Source of the DNA: a virus
IMG/VR virus record: IMGVR_UViG_3300017917_002765
Location: 1-64,000 of that record
DNA: 64,000 nt
Strand: one strand, 5' to 3'
Every line of letters begins with the position of its first letter. Position 1 is the stretch's first letter. This document shows positions 26,030-61,408 of the stretch, in pieces. A program made the translations under genes and the position numbers. Under the pieces are notes generated by a model that saw only the letters and a program-made list of their open reading frames with translations, was not told the origin of the DNA and searched no databases.

Positions 26030-26629
26030 TTATTGAAAATCATAAGTTTTTTTTGTTCCATCAACTTTTGAGTAAACAATATCACTAACAGTAGATTTTA
26101 TATCTTTCAACTCATTCAATTTCTTAATGTATTTGTCAGCCATATTAGGTTTAACATACGCTATTGTACAGTGTGGGTGATAATTTGGATAACTTGTCGT
26201 ATGAGGAAACTTCCTGAACTCTTTGTTTAATTTATGCATATCTTCACTTTCAACATCAAACTTTAATACTTCAAATAGTTCATTTTTGAAAGCTGAAATA
26301 CCCTTAAAAGACAACTCTGGTTTTTTCATTTTGGCTATTTGCTTTTCAATATCAGCATCAGGTATATCACCATGTAAACCAAATAAAACCGTTACGTGAG
26401 GCTCCGTTTCTCTACCATATGTTGGGTCATCTTCTGGTTGATATAAGTCTTCATCCTTGATTATACTAGATAATTTATCCCAATCTTTTTGGTCAATTTC
26501 TAAATTAACCATCAAACAACCATATTCGTTTTTATGCGTTGTTTTTTTGTGTTTACCTTCTAGTAAAGCTTTTCTAAGCGTTTGTTTAATGTCCATAATT
26601 AAAAATATCTCATTTCTACAAAAAGGCAA
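26030..26629 (-). CDS. 2H phosphoesterase (Acb1/T4 57B-like candidate); likely start MDIK
   Basis: Two HxT motifs, PHVTV and PHCTI. Confidence 0.75.
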   Translation of the reverse strand: MPFCRNEIFLIMDIKQTLRKALLEGKHKKTTHKNEYGCLMVNLEIDQKDWDKLSSIIKDEDLYQPEDDPTYGRETEPHVTVLFGLHGDIPDADIEKQIAKMKKPELSFKGISAFKNELFEVLKFDVESEDMHKLNKEFRKFPHTTSYPNYHPHCTIAYVKPNMADKYIKKLNELKDIKSTVSDIVYSKVDGTKKTYDFQ

Positions 26630-26702
26630 TAAAAAAAGCCGACATAATATCGGCTTAATTTATCACTTGGAGCAAATCAGAGATGAGTCCTCGGTCTTGT
26701 TA

Positions 26703-26948
26703 TTATTTTCCAAATTCTACTAAAGCTAAATTAATATCTGCTTCAGATAGTTCAAAAACATCAGTTGACCATTTCCCACCCCAAGCTATAATAAACTTGT
26801 CTTTTTCGTGTCTGTTTTTTAACGCATCTAATTTTTGAGATGTGCTTGAATAGAAGCTAATGTTTCTATCACAATCAATTTTAACTAATGGGTTTAGTTT
26901 GCTTTCAAAGCAATACGTAATAGGCGATATTTCAGTAAAATGTCTCAT
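26703..26948 (-). CDS. Hypothetical protein
   Basis: W.GKW.TDVF motif. Confidence 0.6.
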   Translation of the reverse strand: MRHFTEISPITYCFESKLNPLVKIDCDRNISFYSSTSQKLDALKNRHEKDKFIIAWGGKWSTDVFELSEADINLALVEFGK

Positions 26949-26958
26949 ATTTTATGTT

Positions 26959-27189
26959 TTAGGATACAAAGGTATAAAATTTATTTGACATTTCCAAATC
27001 TTGTTGAATTATTTCACTAATATTATCAAATGTTATTTGATTTAGAATACCAAATACCATGTGATATTGACCATTGCCTTGTGGAAATAAAGTAATACAA
27101 ACACGATAACCTCGATGGTTTGAATACTGAACCCAGATTCTTCTGAATTGAGGATAAGCGACTTCTAATTGCAATTCTAATTCTCTCAT
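26959..27189 (-). CDS. Hypothetical protein
   Basis: 76 aa ORF. Confidence 0.55.
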   Translation of the reverse strand: MRELELQLEVAYPQFRRIWVQYSNHRGYRVCITLFPQGNGQYHMVFGILNQITFDNISEIIQQDLEMSNKFYTFVS

Positions 27190-27202
27190 TATTTTAGTAT
27201 TT

Positions 27203-27293
27203 TGGTGTCTCTGGAGGGATTCGAACCCACGATGGTGCTTTCACACGTCAGCTTAAAAGGCTGTTCCGTTCGGCCAGCTACGGGAACAGAGAC
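27203..27293 (-). tRNA. tRNA-Lys(UUU), long variable arm, encoded CCA
   Basis: Acceptor gtctctg/cagagac; loop ctTTTaa; T-loop ttcgaat. Confidence 0.8.
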
Positions 27294-27298
27294 ATTTG

Positions 27299-27372
27299 TT
27301 GACGTGATGGGAGTTGAACCCACATAAATCTCCTTAAGAGGGAGTTCCGAATGCCTTTACGGGTACACGTCA
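27299..27372 (-). tRNA. tRNA-Lys(CUU)
   Basis: Acceptor tgacgtg/cacgtca; ctcc-ctCTTaa-ggag. Confidence 0.75.
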
Positions 27373-27380
27373 GTGTTTAG

Positions 27381-27453
27381 TGTCCCCGACAGGGTTCGAA
27401 CCTGTGACCTACTGGTTAAAATCCAGTTGCTCTACCTACTAAGCTACGGAGAC
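27381..27453 (-). tRNA. tRNA-Lys(UUU)
   Basis: ctgg-atTTTaa-ccag; canonical T arm. Confidence 0.85.
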
Positions 27454-27575
27454 ATAATATTCCTATTAAGCACCCGTAGCTATTTAACCACAGATGCCTT
27501 TAACGTTTGGATTTTCGTTTAGATTTGAAGGTCATCTTTTTCATAATGTGTTTTTTTTTGTTGTTAATAATTTTG

Positions 27576-27647
27576 AGCATCATACAGAAATCGAATCTGC
27601 GTCCCCACATTGGCAATGTGGTATAATAGCCACTATACGAATGATGC
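27576..27647 (-). tRNA. tRNA-Gly(GCC)
   Basis: ccaca-ttGCCaa-tgtgg; U73. Confidence 0.9.
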
Positions 27648-27750
27648 ATGGAGCAACCTCAGATAACAAATTTCCTATTGCTAGTTTTTGGAGTTATCCT
27701 CTGGTTGCGTGTTAAGTTTTAATTTTCACCAGTCTTAACAACTGGCTGAG

Positions 27751-27822
27751 AGCAGACAACGGGTCTCGAACCCGCCCCCGAACTTTGGAAGACTCCCGTG
27801 CCACCAACAACACCTTGTCTGC
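27751..27822 (-). tRNA. tRNA-Gly(UCC), weak anticodon stem
   Basis: Acceptor gcagaca/tgtctgc; U73; loop ctTCCaa. Confidence 0.75.
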
Positions 27823-27869
27823 ATTTGACTTTCTGACCTCCTTCATACGGAGTTCAAAGTCTAATACCA

Positions 27870-27955
27870 TGGAGCCGAAGGAGGGACTCGAACCCCCGAT
27901 GTTCTTTCGATGGCTGATTACAAATCAGCTGCTGTCGCCACTGAGCCACTTCGGC
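27870..27955 (-). tRNA. tRNA-Thr(UGU), long variable region, encoded CCA
   Basis: gctga-ttTGTaa-tcagc. Confidence 0.88.
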
Positions 27956-28014
27956 ATTAATGACTTTCTATGCTACGGTTGTTCACCGTCTATGAAAATC
28001 TAACAGTCTAGAAG

Positions 28015-28100
28015 TGGGGGAGGAGGGATTCGAACCCCCTGAGTTTCTTATGTGCCAGATTTACAGTCTGGTGCCCATCCGCCATCTGAGCAGCTCCCCC
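28015..28100 (-). tRNA. tRNA-Tyr(GUA)
   Basis: ccaga-ctGTAaa-tctgg; long variable arm. Confidence 0.9.
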
Positions 28101-28172
28101 AAAAACAGAGTGATGTTTTCGATTCAAAATAAAAGTTTGATGATTGTTAATTTGCTGAAATCACTCTTCTTG

Positions 28173-28259
28173 TTGCGCCAATAGGATTTTAACCTATACC
28201 TAGGGTTTTTCAACCACCAAGTTCAAAGGGTAATACCCTGCCAGTTAGGCGATAGCGCA
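28173..28259 (-). tRNA. Atypical tRNA-Gln(UUG)-like RNA
   Basis: Acceptor tgcgcta/tggcgca; ctTTGaa within an enlarged loop; extra GAAA hairpin; T-loop ttaaaat. Confidence 0.55.
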
Positions 28260-28265
28260 GTGTTG

Positions 28266-28336
28266 TTGTCCCGACACGATTCGAACGTATATCAAAGGCT
28301 TCAAAGACCCTTATTCTGCCATTAAACTACAGGACA
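28266..28336 (-). tRNA. tRNA-Gln(UUG)
   Basis: agggt-ctTTGaa-gcctt. Confidence 0.85.
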
Positions 28337-28344
28337 ATATTTTG

Positions 28345-28417
28345 TAGAGTAGAGAGGACTCGAACCTCCAACCTTACGGTCCCAAACCGTATAATCTACC
28401 AATTGATATACTACTCT
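28345..28417 (-). tRNA. tRNA-Pro(UGG)
   Basis: tacgg-ttTGGga-ccgta. Confidence 0.88.
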
Positions 28418-28473
28418 ATGAAAATCCAACATTTCAAATAACACTCGGTCAATATTTTACTTGGTGACCAACC

Positions 28474-28516
28474 AAAAACAAAAAACCCTAGTCTGGTTTT
28501 ATTTAGACTAGGGTTT
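28474..28516 (-). terminator. Attenuator terminator of the Pro/Gln/Tyr/Thr/Gly/Lys tRNA operon
   Basis: AAACCCTAGTCT-loop-AGACTAGGGTTTTTTGTTTTT. Confidence 0.85.
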
Positions 28517-28539
28517 GCGTTTTCTTTCTTTTACTTGGT

Positions 28540-28641
28540 TTAACTCCAACTTTTATGAAGAGACATGCATACACCTAGTCCTACTCGGCCTTGTTTGCCT
28601 TGCGGATACTGTTTACCTGTATATGTGGTTGTCGTTTTCAT
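28540..28641 (-). CDS. Leader peptide sensing K/T/Y/G/Q/P (33 aa, not in ORF track)
   Basis: MKTTTTYTGKQYPQGKQGRVGLGVCMSLHKSWS; contains GGACTAGG, complementary to the terminator 5' arm. Confidence 0.85.
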   Translation of the reverse strand: MKTTTTYTGKQYPQGKQGRVGLGVCMSLHKSWS

Positions 28642-28696
28642 AAGATTTTTTTATCTTTGTTTTTAAATAAATATGCTTTTGTTTATAAAAGTAATG

Positions 28697-28727
28697 CAAA
28701 GGTACTAAACTTTTTTCAATTTGTCAA
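28697..28727 (-). promoter_or_regulatory. Promoter TTGACA-N17-TACCTTTG
   Basis: Bacteroidota -7 element TAnnTTTG; the same architecture precedes all four leaders. Confidence 0.75.
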
Positions 28728-28731
28728 GTTT

Positions 28732-29199
28732 TTAATCAGATTTTTTTTCTGATTTTTTTGGACGACCTCTTTTTTTCTTTGGAGGATTTAATTTATCACG
28801 AAGCTCAGCAGCTTTCAAATAATCTTCATTCGCTAGTGCTTCTTCTAATTGTTCTTGTAGTAATTTTTGGTTAACAACTTTTTTCCCTTTTGGTGAATTT
28901 GTAAATGGTTTATCACTTACAACAAGTTTAACAATATCACCTTCTGGTGTATGCCAAATTTTTTTCTCATAAAAAACAACCCCATCAGAATATGTTTCAA
29001 TCTTATCTGGTTCACCAAGACTATCATCCATTTGTTTTTCTAAATTTTCATCAATATTAGGTATATTTTGGAAATTCATCAGCATATCCATCATTTTTCT
29101 AATCTCTTCCTTCATATTACCTATTTCAATAAATGGGTTTATGGAATTATTTCTTTTTCTGAAAAATTCATTAAATAAATCGTCAAAATTTTTATCCAT
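28732..29199 (-). CDS. UvrB/UvrC-motif protein with AT-hook-like tail
   Basis: LEEALANEDYLKAAELRD; KRGRPKK. Confidence 0.75.
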   Translation of the reverse strand: MDKNFDDLFNEFFRKRNNSINPFIEIGNMKEEIRKMMDMLMNFQNIPNIDENLEKQMDDSLGEPDKIETYSDGVVFYEKKIWHTPEGDIVKLVVSDKPFTNSPKGKKVVNQKLLQEQLEEALANEDYLKAAELRDKLNPPKKKRGRPKKSEKKSD

Positions 29200-29632
29200 G
29201 TTTTTTTAGTTTTGATTTTATGTTATTATGTGTGGTTTTTAAATTAAACGAAAAAACTTTTAAAATATTTATATTATAAAAATACATAAACATAGCAAAA
29301 AATATACCAGCCAATACGTACATAAAACTCATCGTCATCCAATAGTCATGTGTTATACAATTAATACCATAAACTACCAAATCATAACCAAACGGGTTTA
29401 AAAACAAAGCAATTGTTATTAGCCAATTCCCAAGGTTTGTTTTATCCACCTTGAAGGAAAGATAAGACAGCCCAAAGAATAGGGCCGCAAACGCATATAA
29501 CACGCACATTGTATACCAATAGTCGTTGGTTAATTGTGTCAGTTTGTACACCAAAATATCGAACCCAAATGGGTTGAGAAAAGTTGCTATCGTTAAGCAA
29601 ACTGTCCCCATCATCTTTCTGTTTATCACCAT
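29192..29632 (-). CDS. Membrane protein with internal duplication
   Basis: Two copies of FLNPFG[FY]D..VY..T.DYW.TM. Confidence 0.75.
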   Translation of the reverse strand: MVINRKMMGTVCLTIATFLNPFGFDILVYKLTQLTNDYWYTMCVLYAFAALFFGLSYLSFKVDKTNLGNWLITIALFLNPFGYDLVVYGINCITHDYWMTMSFMYVLAGIFFAMFMYFYNINILKVFSFNLKTTHNNIKSKLKKHG

Positions 29633-29736
29633 CCATTCGTTTATATTTTAGTTCAATAGGATTAAATTATTTAGCCCTACTTTTATCGGTTTTACCTAGT
29701 ATAAGCGAAACAACTCAATGCTTCACTTACAAATGA

Positions 29737-29913
29737 TTACATAACTACAGTTGTATCGGTAGTAACACATGTGTCAACCGCTGGTAGGCTAGTAGTGTCA
29801 ACACAAACTTCAGTGCTATCTGTTGTTGAAACCTCTGCCTCAGAACCAACTGGACTGCACGATGCTAATACCAAAACAAACACTGCAATGATTGCGAAGA
29901 ATACTTTTTTCAT
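29737..29913 (-). CDS. Small lipoprotein (not in ORF track)
   Basis: MKKVFFAIIAVFVLVLASC lipobox followed by a D/T/S-rich tail. Confidence 0.65.
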   Translation of the reverse strand: MKKVFFAIIAVFVLVLASCSPVGSEAEVSTTDSTEVCVDTTSLPAVDTCVTTDTTVVM

Positions 29914-29994
29914 TGTTCTTGTTTTTTGTTTTTAGTTATCGCTTTTGGCGTTTATAAATATTATTTTAATACAAATTTACTAATAAATATTGAT

Positions 29995-30246
29995 TTAGTC
30001 AAGAAAATCACCAACATTATTTTGATAAACCCATAAATGGTTGTACATATTTAAAATGGTTATTTCCAATTGAAATGCTGGTGTATGTTCACTTTTAAAT
30101 CGGTCTAAATTAATCTTAAACTCAAAAAATGTTAGCCCATCTTTAAAGTCTCTGATAAAGGAAAAAAGTTGAACTTCATAGTTCCATTTTTTCCATAATT
30201 GGCCGTAAAAAACTAATCCTATATTCATATGTTTTTTAGTTAACAA
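29995..30246 (-). CDS. Hypothetical protein
   Basis: 83 aa ORF. Confidence 0.55.
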   Translation of the reverse strand: MLTKKHMNIGLVFYGQLWKKWNYEVQLFSFIRDFKDGLTFFEFKINLDRFKSEHTPAFQLEITILNMYNHLWVYQNNVGDFLD

Positions 30247-30416
30247 GAACAGAGGCTTGTGGGAATCTCACCTTGGTCCTAGGACCTTTACACTATTTCA
30301 CCCCCTGTACATGGATTATTTAGACCCATTGGATGCCCGTGGTCAGCCACAGCTCTTTTTGGTTATATCCCAAATGAGGGAAAGGGAGCCACCCTAGTGC
30401 TACACAAGCTTGTTCT
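30246..30416 (-). ncRNA. Candidate structured RNA
   Basis: GC-richer intergenic block with terminal pairing agaac-agcttgtg / cacaagc-gttct. Confidence 0.45.
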
Positions 30417-30423
30417 ATTATAG

Positions 30424-30508
30424 TGGGCAGGGGTGGACTCGAACCACCAATCAATTTAACCAATTGTAGACCCGATTAAACTGGCTTTTTCCCGCTAGCT
30501 ACCCGCCC
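30424..30508 (-). tRNA. tRNA-like RNA with a 12-bp extended anticodon arm
   Basis: Acceptor gggcggg/cctgccc; T arm ggtgg-ttcgagt-ccacc; arm cagtttaatcgg-gtctacaa-ttggttaaattg. Confidence 0.65.
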
Positions 30509-30509
30509 A

Positions 30510-30609
30510 TTTCAGATGCTTTACACCATGTTAACCCAGTGTTTAGCTTAGCCACCTTTGACATGTGTGACCTTCGTCTTGTCATCGACATTTCCGATAC
30601 GTTCTGAAA
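30510..30609 (-). ncRNA. Candidate structured RNA
   Basis: Closing stem tttcaga/tctgaaa between two tRNA-like genes. Confidence 0.3.
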
Positions 30610-30626
30610 CACACCGCACAAATATG

Positions 30627-30699
30627 TGGGACGGGATGGAGTCGAACCACCGACACGTGCCTCTTCAGGGCACTGCTCTACCAACTGAGCTACCGTCCC
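30627..30699 (-). tRNA. tRNA-Phe(GAA)
   Basis: gtgcc-ctGAAga-ggcac. Confidence 0.92.
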
Positions 30700-30702
30700 A
30701 AA

Positions 30703-30832
30703 AACCGAGGATAGCTTTTCGGAATCTAATATGGTTACCCATACTTAACACACCATTAGAGAGCTGAGCATTACTGCTTATCCTTAGTGTGTACCTCTAG
30801 AAGCGTCTCTCCACGCTTGCTATCCCACTGGT
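30703..30832 (-). ncRNA. Candidate structured RNA
   Basis: Closing ggatagc/gctatcc; internal hairpin aagcgt-ggagag-acgctt. Confidence 0.45.
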
Positions 30833-30847
30833 TCTTTCGGTCTAGGA

Positions 30848-31063
30848 TTAGTTAGTCGTTACTGAACGATTTCTACGAGTCCTTGTTGAAGCTTCAACAT
30901 CACTTCTAAGATAATCGTTAGGAAGTTCACCATTCCTTTTCATTGCGGCCAATACACCAGCAAATGTCATACGTGGCACACCAAGTCTTTCAGCCATATA
31001 AGCATTTGTACGCTTGTGGCCACATTGTAGGATGTACGCTCTGATTTGTTTTGAAGTTTTCAT
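30848..31063 (-). CDS. Small HTH-like protein
   Basis: NAYMAERLGVPRMT. Confidence 0.6.
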   Translation of the reverse strand: MKTSKQIRAYILQCGHKRTNAYMAERLGVPRMTFAGVLAAMKRNGELPNDYLRSDVEASTRTRRNRSVTTN

Positions 31064-31387
31064 AAAATTTGTTTTTTGTTTATGTTGTTATTTATTATGA
31101 TGCAAAGGTACGATTTAGTTTTTTATTGTGCAAGTTTTCTTAAAAATTTTTTTTAGTCTAAATAAACACCAAAGTAATAGATACACATTAAATCATAGGA
31201 AACACCAAAATCATAAATCTTTTTAAATGTGACCATATCATCAGCACCCAATGCTTTTTTAGCAGCATTAAGTATTACATCACCAATCGCTTGTAGAATA
31301 ATTTTCTTCATAACGCAAAGGTACTAAAAAGATTTTGAAGATGCAAGCTTTAAAACAAAAAAAAAAACCCCTAATTAGGGGCTTTTG

Positions 31388-31509
31388 CGGACGTAAGCCG
31401 ATTCGAACGGCTACCTCTTGCGGGACAGGCAAAAATAAAGATTGGGTTGCTGAAATCATCTTTGTCAAGATGACCTTTTTAAATTATGCTACCATTACAC
31501 CATACGTCC
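31388..31509 (-). tRNA. tRNA-Asp(GUC) with an insertion of about 51 nt between the D arm and anticodon arm
   Basis: Acceptor ggacgta/tacgtcc; G73; D arm gtgt-aatggta-gcat; ttgc-ctGTCcc-gcaa; T arm agccg-ttcgaat-cggct. Confidence 0.7.
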
Positions 31510-31511
31510 AT

Positions 31512-31808
31512 TTATTCTTCTTCAATAGGAAAACAAAAGTCTTCCATTTCTTCATCACTAAATTGTTGTAGGTACAAATTAAGATTTGTTTTAAAATCAT
31601 AATCAAAGTCAATCAATTCATTTGTTAATTCTTCCCATTCACCAAACTTCAAAGCAAATTCTTTTAAATTTTTATCAATCTTAGCCACGTATTCATAAAA
31701 AGACCAAAAAGATATTTCAATAAATGTATTATCAATTAGAAAACACCTAAAATAACTTTCTTCTTTTTCTGTGAATACGAATTCATAATTTCGAATTAGG
31801 TTTATCAT
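31512..31808 (-). CDS. Acidic hypothetical protein
   Basis: 98 aa ORF. Confidence 0.6.
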   Translation of the reverse strand: MINLIRNYEFVFTEKEESYFRCFLIDNTFIEISFWSFYEYVAKIDKNLKEFALKFGEWEELTNELIDFDYDFKTNLNLYLQQFSDEEMEDFCFPIEEE

Positions 31809-31874
31809 ACTTTTTTAATACAAAAATACTAAAAAATTTTATACCAAACAACTATATTTTATCCAAATAATTAG

Positions 31875-31948
31875 TGGAGAGTTGGGGAATTGAACCCCAC
31901 ACACGATGATTGCAAATCATTGTCGCCAGCCTTGGTACATGACTCCCC
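31875..31948 (-). tRNA. tRNA-Ala(UGC)
   Basis: G3:U70 pair; loop ttTGCaa. Confidence 0.9.
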
Positions 31949-31951
31949 GTT

Positions 31952-32056
31952 AAAAACTAAATAGGTCTTCGTCTCTCCTAGCTGGCCCACAAAGCCCGAC
32001 TCGAACGGGAATGCTAGCAACCCAATCCAGCTTGCCCAAAAGGGTATTTAGTTTTT
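31952..32056 (-). ncRNA. Candidate structured RNA containing a tRNA-type T loop
   Basis: 12-bp closing stem aaaaactaaata/tatttagttttt; agctgg/ccagct; cccg-ttcgagt-cggg. Confidence 0.55.
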
Positions 32057-32057
32057 G

Positions 32058-32129
32058 CGGTCTATAAGGGAATCGAACCCTTACCACATCATAGACAGTG
32101 ATGTATCCTAGCCATTGGACCAATAGACC
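32058..32129 (-). tRNA. tRNA-Asp(GUC)
   Basis: catca-ctGTCta-tgatg; G73. Confidence 0.9.
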
Positions 32130-32139
32130 GTATTAAAAG

Positions 32140-32211
32140 TAGCCCCAACGGGAATCGAACCCGTCTTTTTAGGTTGAAAACCTAACGTCCTAACCGATAG
32201 ACGATAGGGCC
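32140..32211 (-). tRNA. tRNA-Glu(UUC)
   Basis: ttagg-ttTTCaa-cctaa. Confidence 0.9.
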
Positions 32212-32217
32212 ATTTTG

Positions 32218-32290
32218 TGGTGAGAAAGGGTGTCGAACCCTTATCTCTGGTTTTTCAGACCAGCGCATAGACCACCTTTGCTATCTCACC
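32218..32290 (-). tRNA. tRNA-Phe(GAA)
   Basis: ctggt-ctGAAaa-accag. Confidence 0.9.
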
Positions 32291-32302
32291 ATATTTTAAA
32301 AC

Positions 32303-32334
32303 AAAAAAGCTTGGTCATTTCTGGCCAAGCTTTT
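32303..32334 (-). terminator. Attenuator terminator of the Phe/Glu/Asp/Ala tRNA operon
   Basis: AAAAGCTTGGCCA-GAAA-TGACCAAGCTTTTTT. Confidence 0.85.
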
Positions 32335-32357
32335 CATCTATTTATTAAACTTTGAGT

Positions 32358-32450
32358 TTACTTTTTAGACAATAGTTGACCACCTAGGCTTTTATCAGCC
32401 TCGGCTGCGAATTCAAACGCAAAATCAAATATGTTAGCAAAAGTTCTCAT
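32358..32450 (-). CDS. Leader peptide sensing F/A/D/E (30 aa, not in ORF track)
   Basis: MRTFANIFDFAFEFAAEADKSLGGQLLSKK; TGGTCAA can pair with TTGGCCA in the terminator. Confidence 0.85.
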   Translation of the reverse strand: MRTFANIFDFAFEFAAEADKSLGGQLLSKK

Positions 32451-32496
32451 TGTTTTTGTTTTTAATTAAATATCTACTTGTTTTAAAAAGTTATTG

Positions 32497-32527
32497 CAAA
32501 TGTACTAAGTATTTTTGAATTTGTCAA
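32497..32527 (-). promoter_or_regulatory. Promoter TTGACA-N17-TACATTTG
   Basis: Same architecture as the other leader promoters. Confidence 0.75.
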
Positions 32528-32540
32528 GTTTTTTGTAAAA

Positions 32541-33572
32541 TTATTTTAATATACCAACTAGAGTTGCAATCGAATTAACTAATTTTATATAAACACCACT
32601 AGGTTGTGTATCAATATCTTCTATACTTTGACCAGCTAAATTATAATAATAAACTCTTTTAATATAATCATCAAACTTTACAGATACCACATTTGAATAT
32701 ACAAAATTACCGTCAAAATCAACTTGTTTTAAACGATAATAATAAGTATTACCTTTTATAACTTCAAAATCATCAAAAGAATATGATTTTAAAGTACTAG
32801 AGTTCCCATGACCATTAACCCATCCAACTAATTCAAAATAAGATGAATTCAAACTTCTTTGGATTTCAAAACCATTATTATTGACCTCAGAATTTGTTTT
32901 CCAAGTTAAATGTGAATATTTATTTTCTATATTTTCAGCATTGAAAGATGAAAGACTTACAGGTAATGCTGTTCCTGAATTAATTAAAGTCCATTTACGA
33001 TTAGAAGCAAAACCTATGGTGTCTGTGGAAGAACCAATACTATATAAAGCTGTCGATGAATTTACCCAAACACTTGATGGATTATAATAATTTAAAACCA
33101 AATCATTGTAGTTATATGGTATATCATTTATATCATAAGTTAAAGTTACGGTAGCAACTGGTTTGGTTGTAAAATTTGATAAATCTATTGTCCAATATCT
33201 ATTAATACTACTAGAATTATAATACGAAGTATTTGATGTAACAGCTGTATCAACGTTAGAAAATTTTATTGAGCTTCCATCACCAGCATTTGTAATGTTT
33301 AAATAAATTGGTAAATAAACGCTTGAATATGATATAAATGGTACAATATATGTTCCTTTATTATTTTGTATATTCCATTCAACAAAACCACCCATTGTAT
33401 CTGGCACATAAAACCCACCACCAGATGAATAAATTGATGACACGCTTGTATCACAAACATAAACGTTACCACCAGATTTTAAAGTAATATAAGATTGGTT
33501 ATCTATAAAAATTGATTGTGCATTGATGAAAGCACAAATCAAAACAAACATAAATGTGATTAACTTTTTCAT
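32541..33572 (-). CDS. Secreted Bacteroidota-type protein with T9SS-substrate-like C-terminus
   Basis: Signal peptide; LPVSLSSF..W.T.SE.NN.GFEIQRS..YYYRLKQVDFDG; YNLAGQ..GVYI. Confidence 0.75.
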   Translation of the reverse strand: MKKLITFMFVLICAFINAQSIFIDNQSYITLKSGGNVYVCDTSVSSIYSSGGGFYVPDTMGGFVEWNIQNNKGTYIVPFISYSSVYLPIYLNITNAGDGSSIKFSNVDTAVTSNTSYYNSSSINRYWTIDLSNFTTKPVATVTLTYDINDIPYNYNDLVLNYYNPSSVWVNSSTALYSIGSSTDTIGFASNRKWTLINSGTALPVSLSSFNAENIENKYSHLTWKTNSEVNNNGFEIQRSLNSSYFELVGWVNGHGNSSTLKSYSFDDFEVIKGNTYYYRLKQVDFDGNFVYSNVVSVKFDDYIKRVYYYNLAGQSIEDIDTQPSGVYIKLVNSIATLVGILK

Positions 33573-33574
33573 AA

Positions 33575-34921
33575 TTAATTCCTAATAATTAATACGTGTA
33601 AGCTACCTTGTCTAGCAGCTGTATTAGCTGATGAAACGTTAGCACTAACACCAGCAGTATAAACGGTTCTAACGTCAATTGTGTGTGAACCAGCACTTAA
33701 AGCTTGAAATGATGTTAATGTCCATTGATTACCTGTATTTGTAACATTTGAGCCAGAACCTGAATTAGCCGCAGTAACTCTTGTATAACTACCATTTGTT
33801 GGATATGAGCCATCAATGAATATTGCAAAATCTAATGTAGAATACCCAGTACTAGATGTGCTGTTTGTATTAAATGTACCATCAGTATAAATCATAACAA
33901 AACAATTTGAAGGTATCGTAAGTGTTGTTGTTAGACCTGGTATTGTGGTAAATGTTGTTGTAGATGTTGTAACCAATAATGTAGAACTACCGTAAACTGA
34001 TGTTACTGAATTTCCAAGTGCAGACCATGATAAACCACCAGAACCATCATTTCTAAGAAAAGTATTTGCTGTGCCTTGAGCTGTTGGTAGCGTCATTGAA
34101 TATGAAGTTGTAGTTGTGCCACCGTTAATCGTTACGGTATTGCTATTGGTTGAATTAGCGAATCTTAAACTTCCATCAATAGCACTGGCATTATTACCTA
34201 ATATAAAACCTGTATAGTTAGGTGAAGCAGTAGAGGAAAATCTACCTAATTCTTTATTGGCCACCACAAAACCAAATGAATTGGTCCCAGACCTATAAAT
34301 GCCAGAGTTAGCGTCATTATTAAATCTAATAGCTGGTGTTCCTGTACCACCGTCATTAACTATAACCCCACTATTTGTTTTTATGGCTCCAACAACATCC
34401 AATTTAACACTTGGTGAAGTGGTGCCTATACCAACTGAAGTCCCATCATTATAAATGTTTGAATTGTTTAACACCCACTGAGTCCCATCCCAATATGTTG
34501 TATTACCAGTTGCAGCACCAGAACCTATTAAACCAGTAGCTCCTTGGTTACCCTGTGCACCAGTAGCTCCTTGATTACCCTGTGGGCCAGTAGGACCTTG
34601 ATTACCTGTGGGACCTTGTGGACCTGTAGGCCCCTGTGCACCTGTAGGACCTTGATTACCTGTAGGACCCTGTACACCTGTAGGACCTTGATTACCTGTG
34701 GGACCTTGTGCCCCAACATTTCCATTTATTATTGGTAATCTGATTACTTTTCCAGTATTTGTAACCCCAATGTATTGGGAGTCTAGACCACTTACACCTC
34801 TTATTGTTAAGTCTCCATTAATATCAAGTGTTGTTTGTGGTGAATTTGTGTTTATACCCACATTTTGAGCAAAAACATTAATCGTTAATAAAACGAAAAG
34901 GATTGATAAAATTTTTTTCAT
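33575..34921 (-). CDS. Secreted collagen-repeat / fibre-like protein
   Basis: Signal peptide, [12 protein letters not shown] repeats, VGIGTTSP motif. Confidence 0.8.
34526..34715 (-). repeat. Collagen G-X-Y coding tandem repeat
   Basis: Repeated GPTGNQ/GAQ/GAT units. Confidence 0.9.
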
Positions 34922-55456: not shown

Positions 55457-55517
55457 ATAATAACCAATATGTCAAATAACGTCTGACCAATATTTTATTT
55501 GGTGGTCAACCAAAAAT

Positions 55518-55553
55518 AAAAAACCCGACCTAGATTTTTATCTGAGTCGGGTT
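55518..55553 (-). terminator. Attenuator terminator of the Trp/Ser/His/Ile/Asn/Met/Arg tRNA operon
   Basis: AACCCGACTCAGAT-loop-ATCTAGGTCGGGTTTTTT. Confidence 0.85.
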
Positions 55554-60974: not shown

Positions 60975-61046
60975 TAGCGGGGGATGGAATCGAACCACCG
61001 ACCTCTAGGTTATGAGCCTAGCGAGCTACCACTGCTCCACCCCGCA
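60975..61046 (-). tRNA. Initiator-type tRNA-Met(CAU)
   Basis: 1:72 mismatch; gcggggtggagcag 5' end; ctagg-ctCATaa-cctag. Confidence 0.88.
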
Positions 61047-61052
61047 ATATTG

Positions 61053-61121
61053 TAGAAGAGAAAGGCCTTGAACCTTTATTTCCGCCCCCATGGGCGTTGT
61101 CTTTCCTTAGACGACTCCTCT
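61053..61121 (-). tRNA. tRNA-like RNA with an aberrant anticodon loop (Pro-like)
   Basis: Acceptor agaggag/ctcttct; cgcc-catggg-ggcg; T arm aaagg-ttcaagg-ccttt. Confidence 0.5.
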
Positions 61122-61130
61122 ATGTATCCC

Positions 61131-61308
61131 AAGATAGTTGTTCGTATTTATTTTACATGACTCCCGTTTACATGGTGATAATTTATTACTCGACTCCACA
61201 TCGAGGCAGATTTGGTTACTATGGTGCCGCTCTTTCGAGTTAGACCATAATGAGAGTCTAGCTTACTCCCTTTTTCCACTGTAGTTTTGTTTTTGCAGAA
61301 CCTATCTT
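61131..61308 (-). ncRNA. Candidate structured RNA
   Basis: Closing aagatag/ctatctt; internal tatgg/ccata and ctc-gaaa-gag hairpins. Confidence 0.45.
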
Positions 61309-61354
61309 TTTTGGATATTTTAGATTAACAAAGAACGTTGTGTTAATATATATG

Positions 61355-61385
61355 CAAAGGTACGAAGAAAAATTGTATTTGTCAA
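61355..61385 (-). promoter_or_regulatory. Promoter TTGACA-N17-TACCTTTG for the fMet cluster
   Basis: Same motif, followed by boxA-like GTTCTTTG. Confidence 0.7.
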
Positions 61386-61408
61386 GTTTTTTTAAAAAAA
61401 AATTTTTG

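Follow-up and report, generated by a model that had tools for sequence, protein, structure and literature searches.

It has long been asked why phages carry tRNA genes, and the locus analyzed here puts this question in a specific form: what does a short open reading frame (ORF) do that stands between a promoter and a group of tRNA genes and whose first codons specify the very amino acids of those tRNAs? The locus lies in a stretch of 64,000 nucleotides (hereafter designated the window), corresponding to positions 1 to 64,000 of the virus record IMGVR_UViG_3300017917_002765 (136,575 bp; estimated completeness, 39%). The window is AT-rich (G+C, 24–39% in 2-kb bins) and contains 29 tRNA genes and one tmRNA gene, all on the minus strand. 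Along this strand, a promoter is followed in order by an A-rich untranslated stretch, the leader ORF, a terminator, a small hairpin with a motif, and the tRNA genes. Judging from the sequence, we consider it likely that the leader is a ribosome-mediated (leader-peptide) transcription attenuator gating the phage tRNA operon; such a switch would probably restrict production of the tRNA set to times when these codons are decoded slowly by ribosomes.

The tRNA cluster under putative control spans 27203–28417 on the minus strand, as delimited by ARAGORN and Rfam. Within 28417–27203, ARAGORN detected nine tRNAs, for Pro, Gln, Tyr, Thr, Gly (two), and Lys (three), and Rfam gave a tenth match (37.7 bits), a tRNA-like element at 28173–28259. 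The genes are arranged as Pro(TGG), Gln(TTG), the tRNA-like element, Tyr(GTA), Thr(TGT), Gly(TCC), Gly(GCC), Lys(TTT), Lys(CTT), and Lys(TTT). The sequence-only reading had counted ten tRNA or tRNA-like genes for six amino acids, which is right with the proviso that the tenth has no assignable identity, because the loop of its folded 'anticodon' arm has just 3 nt; this element gave no blastn match (E ≤ 1e-3) in eight homologue loci. Thirty of the 30 Rfam matches at gathering level in the window were tRNA or tmRNA, and neither the Rfam leader families (Trp, His, Thr, Leu, and Phe) nor the T-box gave a match at gathering score there. The products of the operon are nine tRNAs and one tRNA-like element, not the biosynthetic enzymes or synthetases that are the classical targets of such control. 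RtcB was not found in the phage record, estimated to be 39% complete. Between the terminator and the first tRNA lies a conserved element (28426–28469, minus strand), consisting of a hairpin, GGTCA...TGACC, and the motif TTTGAAATGTTGG; the stem is compensated, reading GACCA/TGGTC in the window's other leader and CCTAT/ATAGG in relatives.

The leader ORF (28540–28641, minus strand; 33 codons and a stop codon), taken from the ORF list and its translation, encodes MKTTTTYTGKQYPQGKQGRVGLGVCMSLHKSWS. Its codons 2–18 (28588–28638, minus strand; hereafter designated the regulatory codons) had been described from the sequence as 17 consecutive codons for Lys, Thr, Tyr, Gly, Gln, and Pro (K/T/Y/G/Q/P) only, and both the list of codons and the count (17 of 17) proved to be exact. 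This alphabet is exactly that of the amino acids of the nine downstream tRNAs. In the six frames of the window, K/T/Y/G/Q/P account for 26.8% of 127,996 codons, and the longest run drawn from them is 17, the runners-up being 11, 11, and 9; under an i.i.d. model, 1.8e-5 runs of this length or longer are expected, and with the composition of the phage's proteins as the background (q = 0.314), the binomial tail amounts to 2.8e-9. A restricted alphabet at the start of an ORF is in itself no rarity, since 9 of 462 ATG ORFs use six or fewer residue types in positions 2–18; of these nine, the leader ORF is the one that matches an adjacent tRNA set, and the other eight do not match theirs.

The individual codons were also compared with the decoding capacity of the operon. 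By standard wobble, the operon's own anticodons read 16 of the 17 regulatory codons, the exception being ACC, and over codons 2–19 they read 16 of 18, the additional miss being the Arg codon CGA at codon 19. When ten homologous leaders (described below) were pooled, which are not independent of one another, Pro was encoded by CCG in 12 of 18 cases (5% in phage genes), Gly by GGC in 10 of 21 (6% in phage genes), and Thr by ACA or ACG in 39 of 44 (53% in phage genes). Such a codon choice fits a tuned sensor, but the demands of base pairing could also account for it.

Moreover, the design occurs four times. The promoter recurs ahead of three further tRNA clusters in the window, accompanied in each case by a short ORF and a hairpin with a T run: the leader MRTFANIFDFAFEFAAEAD... 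precedes the Phe, Glu, Asp, and Ala tRNAs, MKTSLTNLVLVLCLLV... precedes the Cys, Val, and three Leu tRNAs, and MRNINIHINSISMWRRNSN... precedes the Trp, two His, Ile, two Asn, and Arg tRNAs. In a 4 × 4 table of leaders against tRNA sets, the diagonal held 17, 13, 10, and 13 of 17 residues, and the off-diagonal cells held 0–3. If the leaders act as we suppose, one genome would possess four natural codon-specific sensors, orthogonal to one another. This table bears directly on an alternative in which the attenuator is real and not codon-specific, gauging translation overall (ribosome supply, elongation rate, or antibiotics), with the alphabet as a by-product of RNA structure or descent. We regard this alternative as unlikely: the rare G/C-ending codons could indeed serve pairing and not sensing, but four leaders carry four alphabets, each that of its own operon, with just 0–3 residues from the other three sets.

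The promoter (CTTGACAAA, 14 nt, GTACCTTTG; 28697–28728, minus strand) was recognized as a two-box pattern of 32 nt. Its layout, −33 TTG and −7 TAnnTTTG, is one that we take to be typical of Bacteroidota. The 136,575-bp record has five copies of the 32-nt pattern, each on the minus strand and each ahead of a tRNA operon, and the reversed-pattern control has no occurrence; the fifth copy precedes tRNA-Met and is without a leader of this kind. The element TANNTTTG is enriched in the window (153 sites versus 113.6 ± 10.5; none of 100 shuffles reached the observed number). On the minus strand from 28697 to 26974, including the region downstream of the terminator, no further TANNTTTG (a −7-type box) was found, so that, by this criterion, transcription of the tRNA genes would be possible only through the terminator hairpin.

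These data can be set against a reading of the locus in which nothing is regulated: the ORF would be a small phage gene like any other, ended by a terminator of its own, and the tRNAs would come from leaky read-through or from a promoter that escaped recognition. The nine low-complexity short ORFs among 462 in the window suit this reading, as does the position of the conserved element between the terminator and the first tRNA. It is countered by the lack of a promoter-type box downstream of the terminator, by an alphabet match with a tail of 2.8e-9, and by the fourfold recurrence of the design, and we give it little probability.

Homologues were sought with the 32-nt promoter pattern, which had 98 matches in viral contigs and at least 121 in metagenome contigs. 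A leader of any of the four classes was present in 37 and at least 11 matches, respectively, and one of the K/T/Y/G/Q/P class in 14 and at least 4, the class alphabets having been set from this window, with Ser and Met added to the Trp/His/Ile/Asn/Arg class after the relatives had been seen. Among the matches listed, the first five or fewer downstream tRNAs all fell within the six-letter alphabet in 15 of 15 tRNA-holding members of the K/T/Y/G/Q/P class. An earlier 21-mer promoter pattern had given 12 stretches, of which three were relatives, all of another leader class. More distant searches added little and brought up no cultured relative: BLAST of 26500–34000 against 50,697 phage records matched 466 records, none with a query coverage of 80% or more, and the best 20 rows each covered 2% of the query at most, with mostly tRNA genes as the annotated features beneath. 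The best named match, Flavobacterium phage immuto, has a small tRNA group of another kind, which lacks this design. With the 155-residue upstream protein as the query, no relative was found in viral contigs.

After removal of duplicates, ten distinct versions of the K/T/Y/G/Q/P leader remained among the matches listed (e.g., MKTTVTTYQPKQTQGGKP..., MKKTTTYQYTGKPQGQGKQGP..., and MKTTATYQTKQYQPKGGTP...), which form three closely knit groups. In codons 2–19, 14–18 of 18 residues belong to the alphabet and 0–4 lie outside it, while the order of the residues varies. In the nine homologues with tRNAs, the anticodons of the leader's own operon read 13–17 of 18 leader codons; one operon (L103) has a tRNA-His, and its leader is without a His codon. 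The reading frame, the start context ATGAAAAC, and the length of 29–35 codons are kept in all ten homologues, through indels, and the C-terminal halves of the peptides vary freely. Between the window and its closest relative among the matches listed (L121), 3 of 17 regulatory codons differ, and all three differences are synonymous third-position changes. A kept alphabet, a drifting order and C-terminus, and synonymous changes are together what one would expect if a translated stretch were selected for its composition and not for its peptide, and we infer that the leader ORF is translated. A leader gauging translation overall could tolerate the 0–4 residues outside the alphabet; it would need neither the drift of the order nor the retention of the alphabet.

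The terminator, situated past the leader ORF and ahead of the first tRNA gene, consists, on the minus strand, of a 5′ arm (region 3; AAACCCTAGTCT, 28505–28516), a 3′ arm (region 4; AGACTAGGGTTT, 28483–28494), both defined by folding, and a U tract of six T, one G, and five T read from the sequence (28474–28485). The hairpin has 12 base pairs and a 10-nt loop and is calculated at −16.7 kcal/mol. A consensus scan listed it on the plus strand only, because the loop limit of the scan is 8 nt. It is present in ten of ten homologues, the last 60 nt folding with −14.7 to −18.3 kcal/mol.

A strand within the ORF, GGACTAGG with the flank GUGUAUG (region 2; 28568–28582, minus strand), was identified by duplex search and covariation as the antiterminator strand. 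The sequence-only reading had paired GGACTAGG (28581–28574) with CCTAGTCT in the 5′ arm of the terminator, and this was indeed found to be the best partner in the whole leader: the duplex is calculated at −14.1 kcal/mol versus a dinucleotide-shuffle mean of −8.1 (z = −3.33), and none of 200 shuffles was as good. When the 5′ arm was extended by 2 nt into the loop, its best partner lay at ORF nucleotides 53–74 in all ten homologues; with the bare 5′ arm, the best partner in L121 lay elsewhere, at nucleotides 23–28. The duplex reached p ≤ 0.05 in five of ten homologues and was weak in L035 (p = 0.4) and L050 (p = 0.55). By the same duplex and shuffle test, antiterminator complementarity was found in none of five leaders of the Phe/Glu/Asp/Ala class. 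The predicted antiterminator fold also has an inner part, a small hairpin, UUGG...CCAA, whose loop contains the stop codon (28535–28549, minus strand; from folding). By eye, a hairpin is seen over or just past the stop codon in most of the homologues shown.

The two pairings of the 5′ arm change in step among the homologues. Three types of terminator stem occur, CCCTAGTC/GACTAGGG, CCCGAT/ATCGGG, and CCCAGT/ACTGGG, and the strand in the ORF varies with them as GGACTAGG, ATCGGGT, and GACTGGGY. In a register set by hand, which was fitted to the structure and is biased toward it, the position after CCC is T-A in three homologues, G-C in four, and A-T in three, in the terminator and the antiterminator alike, and 77 of 100 cells pair, compared with 20–48 in slid registers. 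Since this register had been fitted, the count was repeated on a plain MAFFT alignment of trimmed sequences, whose trimming was also structure-aware and in which the window and L121 sit one column out; there, 77.5% of cells pair versus 15–56% in slid registers, and at three pairs, both partners vary. The covariation score in the trimmed alignment is 0.233 against 0.112 ± 0.029 for 500 shuffles, none of which reaches it. The number of independent covariation events is small, because, by sequence homology, about three base-pair switches separate the three types. On the untrimmed MAFFT alignments, RNAalifold gave no pairs for the antiterminator stretch and none for the protector stretch described below; the first three rows of MAFFT output were visibly out of register, and the pairs were therefore counted on the trimmed alignment and in the register of our own.

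These results bear on three of the other explanations. For an unregulated small gene, it is hard to see why the C-terminal halves of the peptides vary freely, yet the pairing partners of the terminator within the ORF are either conserved or changed in a compensatory manner. A switch made of RNA only, such as a T-box-like leader binding tRNA or a processed small RNA, in which the reading frame is incidental, would account for a strongly structured leader with co-varying alternative pairings. We nevertheless hold it to be very improbable: among the 30 gathering-level matches of Rfam are only tRNA and tmRNA, the frame, start, and length survive indels in ten homologues, the three differences of the closest pair are all synonymous, and seventeen codons for six amino acids are unlike a single specifier. 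Finally, a mere coincidence of short ORF, hairpin, and tRNA genes could be invoked on the ground that the case was picked after being seen, and nothing else favors it; the run statistics, the homologues, the covariation, and the promoter-pattern counts all oppose it, and it is scarcely credible. Collectively, the proposal made from the sequence, that of an attenuator whose codons name the downstream tRNAs, is supported by composition, recurrence, homologues, and covariation; that read-through depends on stalling is the part we infer.

How region 2 might be kept from region 3 was examined by folding. The sequence-only reading had suggested a protector hairpin formed by GCAAACA (28598–28592) and TGTATGC (28573–28567). 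The complementarity stands, at six of seven positions, but the pairing contributes no more than −2.5 kcal/mol and does not appear in the predicted fold, and it was dropped. The predicted alternative pairs region 2 with 28625–28604, that is, with a segment containing Thr-Tyr-Thr, Gly, and Pro codons (region 1; 28604–28625, minus strand; from base-pair probabilities and the minimum free energy (MFE) structure). The pairing of regions 1 and 2 has base-pair probabilities of 0.58–0.99 and is part of the MFE structure of the untranslated leader; before region 3 exists, six of the eight bases of region 2 in the window are paired with 28625–28604 with P ≥ 0.82.

The folds at the decision point were calculated for a transcript cut just before the 3′ arm of the terminator, with the ribosome represented by a mask of 31 nt. 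When the A-site was placed at codon 10 or 14, the antiterminator was the MFE structure in ten of ten homologues. With no ribosome, the protector was the MFE structure in six of ten, and the antiterminator already won in the other four, namely, the window, L045, L050, and L121. That the untranslated leader folds into the protector in six of ten homologues suits a gauge of translation overall as well. For the full-length transcript of the window at equilibrium, the terminator was kept in the naked RNA and under 11 of 11 ribosome masks. The terminator being always the equilibrium fold, the choice between terminator and antiterminator must be kinetic; the same property would also be expected of a small gene that simply has its own terminator.

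The position of the stop codon was likewise considered. It ends 34 nt past region 2 in the window and 24–35 nt past it in the homologues, so that a terminating ribosome does not cover region 2, unlike in the trp leader. Of the nine homologues examined, a mask at the stop codon left the antiterminator in place in five, the window among them, and abolished it in four, and it removed the inner stop-codon hairpin of the antiterminator fold. Our best guess from this modeling is that refolding of the protector behind the ribosome and loss of the inner hairpin would jointly tip the balance to termination.

The following scheme of attenuation is thus proposed. Transcription would start from the dedicated promoter at 28728–28697, and the 33-codon leader would then be translated. 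When charged tRNA for Lys, Thr, Tyr, Gly, Gln, or Pro runs short, the ribosome would slow on codons 2–18 and cover region 1 (28625–28604), leaving region 2, GGACTAGG, free. Region 2 would then pair with the 5′ arm of the terminator as soon as the latter is made, the terminator hairpin would not form, and the polymerase would read through into the Pro-Gln-Tyr-Thr-Gly-Lys tRNA genes. If the leader is read smoothly or is left unread, region 1 would hold region 2, or a ribosome at the stop codon would melt the fold that supports the antiterminator; the 12-bp terminator would then form, and the transcript would end at about 28474. Stalling on the leader codons would be the cause of read-through. 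Since the output of tRNA feeds back on the speed of decoding, the unit would gauge the supply of its own tRNA set. It counts against the attenuator reading that additional tRNA would not relieve amino-acid starvation. On the same side stand the equilibrium preference of the full-length transcript for the terminator, the antiterminator fold already favored by the untranslated leader of the window, the distance of the stop codon from region 2, the empty RNAalifold predictions, the weak or missing antiterminator complementarity in L035, L050, and the Phe/Glu/Asp/Ala class, and the imperfect alphabet match in relatives.

A use for such a switch is conceivable that meets a shortage of tRNA itself. 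Phage tRNAs have recently been proposed to make up for host tRNAs that defence nucleases destroy (PMC10264068 and PMC11555353, in the portions of these papers available to us). Each tRNA operon of this phage lineage may, tentatively, be an autonomous codon-resolved alarm, in which the removal of particular tRNAs by host defence or by phage-induced shut-off would stall ribosomes on the matching leader, the replacement set being switched on in that event only; we think this possible but doubtful. A nuclease that cuts the tRNAs for Lys, Tyr, or Gln would be an example of a trigger. If the alarm reading is true, the virus would encode a sensor of the tRNA pool in which translation itself detects the immune attack. 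As regards the question of why phages carry tRNA genes, the attenuator, if real, would mean that a phage measures the decoding of exactly those codons and supplies the tRNAs on demand. It would also carry leader-peptide attenuation beyond amino-acid metabolism, into the decoding machinery, where one unit would cover six amino acids, and into viruses and hosts with Bacteroidota-type promoters.

Multivalent leader-peptide attenuators are known from enterobacterial amino-acid operons, where the ilvGMEDA leader responds to Ile, Leu, and Val and thrL to Thr and Ile. In the classical trp attenuator, the terminator is likewise the equilibrium fold, and antitermination is kinetic. The phage unit resembles ilvGMEDA and thrL in having a short, presumably translated leader in which codons for several amino acids form a run, together with an intrinsic terminator and a strand competing for its 5′ arm, and the terminator is the more stable fold in both, hence the kinetic choice. 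It differs from them in that its targets are tRNAs and not biosynthetic enzymes, that six amino acids would be sensed, that it belongs to a phage and has a Bacteroidota-type promoter, that its stop codon lies 34 nt beyond region 2, and that there is no kinship in sequence or Rfam family.

Leader peptides also control genes of the translation apparatus. In Escherichia coli, pheM-pheST is a leader-peptide attenuator of synthetase genes. A T-box binds uncharged tRNA directly via one specifier codon, and translation is not needed. The phage leader is like a T-box in being a transcription attenuator with competing terminator and antiterminator folds that would respond to the status of tRNA, and it differs in having no T-box match in Rfam. 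In bacilli, a histidine leader peptide is located upstream of hisS paralogues, according to the part of PMC2965389 at hand, and the general mechanism of leader-peptide attenuation is described in PMC1183508 (likewise available in part). The hisS and pheST systems share with the proposed phage unit that a leader peptide gauges the supply of charged tRNA and adjusts a decoding component for the same amino acid; they control a synthetase for one amino acid, whereas the phage unit would control tRNAs for six, in a virus.

With regard to tRNA genes as the target, no account of their leader-peptide attenuation was found in searches of the main texts of papers, and the nearest published case found is the long tRNA array (trn operon) of Anabaena sp. 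PCC 7120, which is not leader-peptide attenuated. This array is silent and is induced under translational stress (PMC8421152); the words 'leader peptide', 'attenuat', and 'terminator' do not occur in the text of that paper, and control is exerted via TrcR, a ribbon-helix-helix repressor (PMC10272220, in the part accessible to us). That this nearest case answers general translational stress, as stated in PMC8421152 and in the accessible part of PMC10272220, gives some weight to the view that the phage leader, too, gauges translation overall. For the codon-resolved attenuator that we prefer, the comparison is twofold: both systems keep an accessory tRNA operon off until translation is impaired, and they differ in that the Anabaena operon, so far as the accessible part of PMC10272220 describes it, is governed by a repressor protein answering general stress, without codon resolution, while the phage operon would be opened by the ribosome itself, stalled on the codons that the downstream tRNAs read.

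Complementarity between an antiterminator strand, that is, a segment within the leader ORF resembling the terminator 3' arm, and the terminator 5' arm was assessed for each leader class, in the window and in relatives, by comparing the duplex with those of shuffled sequences. Significant complementarity was found in 11 of the 13 leaders of the Trp/His/Ile/Asn/Arg class, in all six of the Cys/Val/Leu class and in none of the five leaders of the Phe/Glu/Asp/Ala class (32300-32528, minus strand, in the window, plus relatives), with z values of -0.13 to +0.7.

Viral and metagenome contigs also yielded L087 (6389-6650, plus strand) and L137 (minus strand), two loci having the same promoter type in another layout, with leaders of mixed composition. 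A single leader of this kind (e.g. MKQIFAHTNLLSVAGPYNIESTQKDITLFGVCES) lies upstream of a 17-tRNA array for 16 amino acids, and that of L137 upstream of 9 tRNAs. Near-copies of the terminator 3' arm are contained in the leader ORFs of both L087 (GTTCGGGGTTT) and L137 (GTTCAGGGTT). This layout suggests that leader alphabets follow array content. In two relatives, L008 (3796-4330, plus strand) and L009 (minus strand), a leader of the Trp/His/Ile/Asn/Arg type and its terminator are separated from the first tRNA by an ORF of about 50 or more codons (start MEEQRLKKLG...), and the predicted attenuator would therefore control a protein gene as well. The fifth copy of the promoter in the record, upstream of tRNA-Met (61046-61386, minus strand), is followed by an interval of about 300 nt with higher G+C and apparently structured RNA, in which no leader of any of the four classes was found; at the matching site, relatives carry short ORFs starting with MGSA....

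On the 3' side of the terminator of the K/T/Y/G/Q/P locus, a small hairpin is followed by the motif YTTTGAMRTRTKGG (28426-28469, minus strand), 10-25 nt upstream of the first tRNA, with a counterpart 3' of the Trp/His leader (about 55476-55520, minus strand). The hairpin stems are compensated (GGTCA/TGACC, GACCA/TGGTC in the counterpart and CCTAT/ATAGG in relatives). Among the matches listed, 202 distinct stretches lay downstream of the promoter; the motif occurred in 10 of them, each a tRNA leader, and could be a processing signal. Within the cluster, a tRNA-like element (28173-28259, minus strand; Rfam match, 37.7 bits) flanked by tRNA-Gln and tRNA-Tyr was not called by ARAGORN and had no blastn match in eight homologue loci; its fold (z, -4.5) has acceptor, T and long variable arms, and a 3-nt loop occupies the anticodon-loop position. 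The 86-nt tRNA-Asp (anticodon ATC; 30423-30508, minus strand) called by ARAGORN, for which RNAfold predicts a 12-bp arm at the anticodon position, is an odd tRNA or tRNA-like gene, preceded by a 71-aa ORF and not by a leader peptide.

Adjoining the far side of the cluster is a predicted 2H phosphoesterase gene (26030-26629, minus strand), whose product could act in RNA repair or cyclic-nucleotide degradation; it matches the 2'-5' RNA ligase superfamily (47.7 bits) and, just short of the 27-bit cut-off, the anti-CBASS protein Acb1 (26.9 bits).
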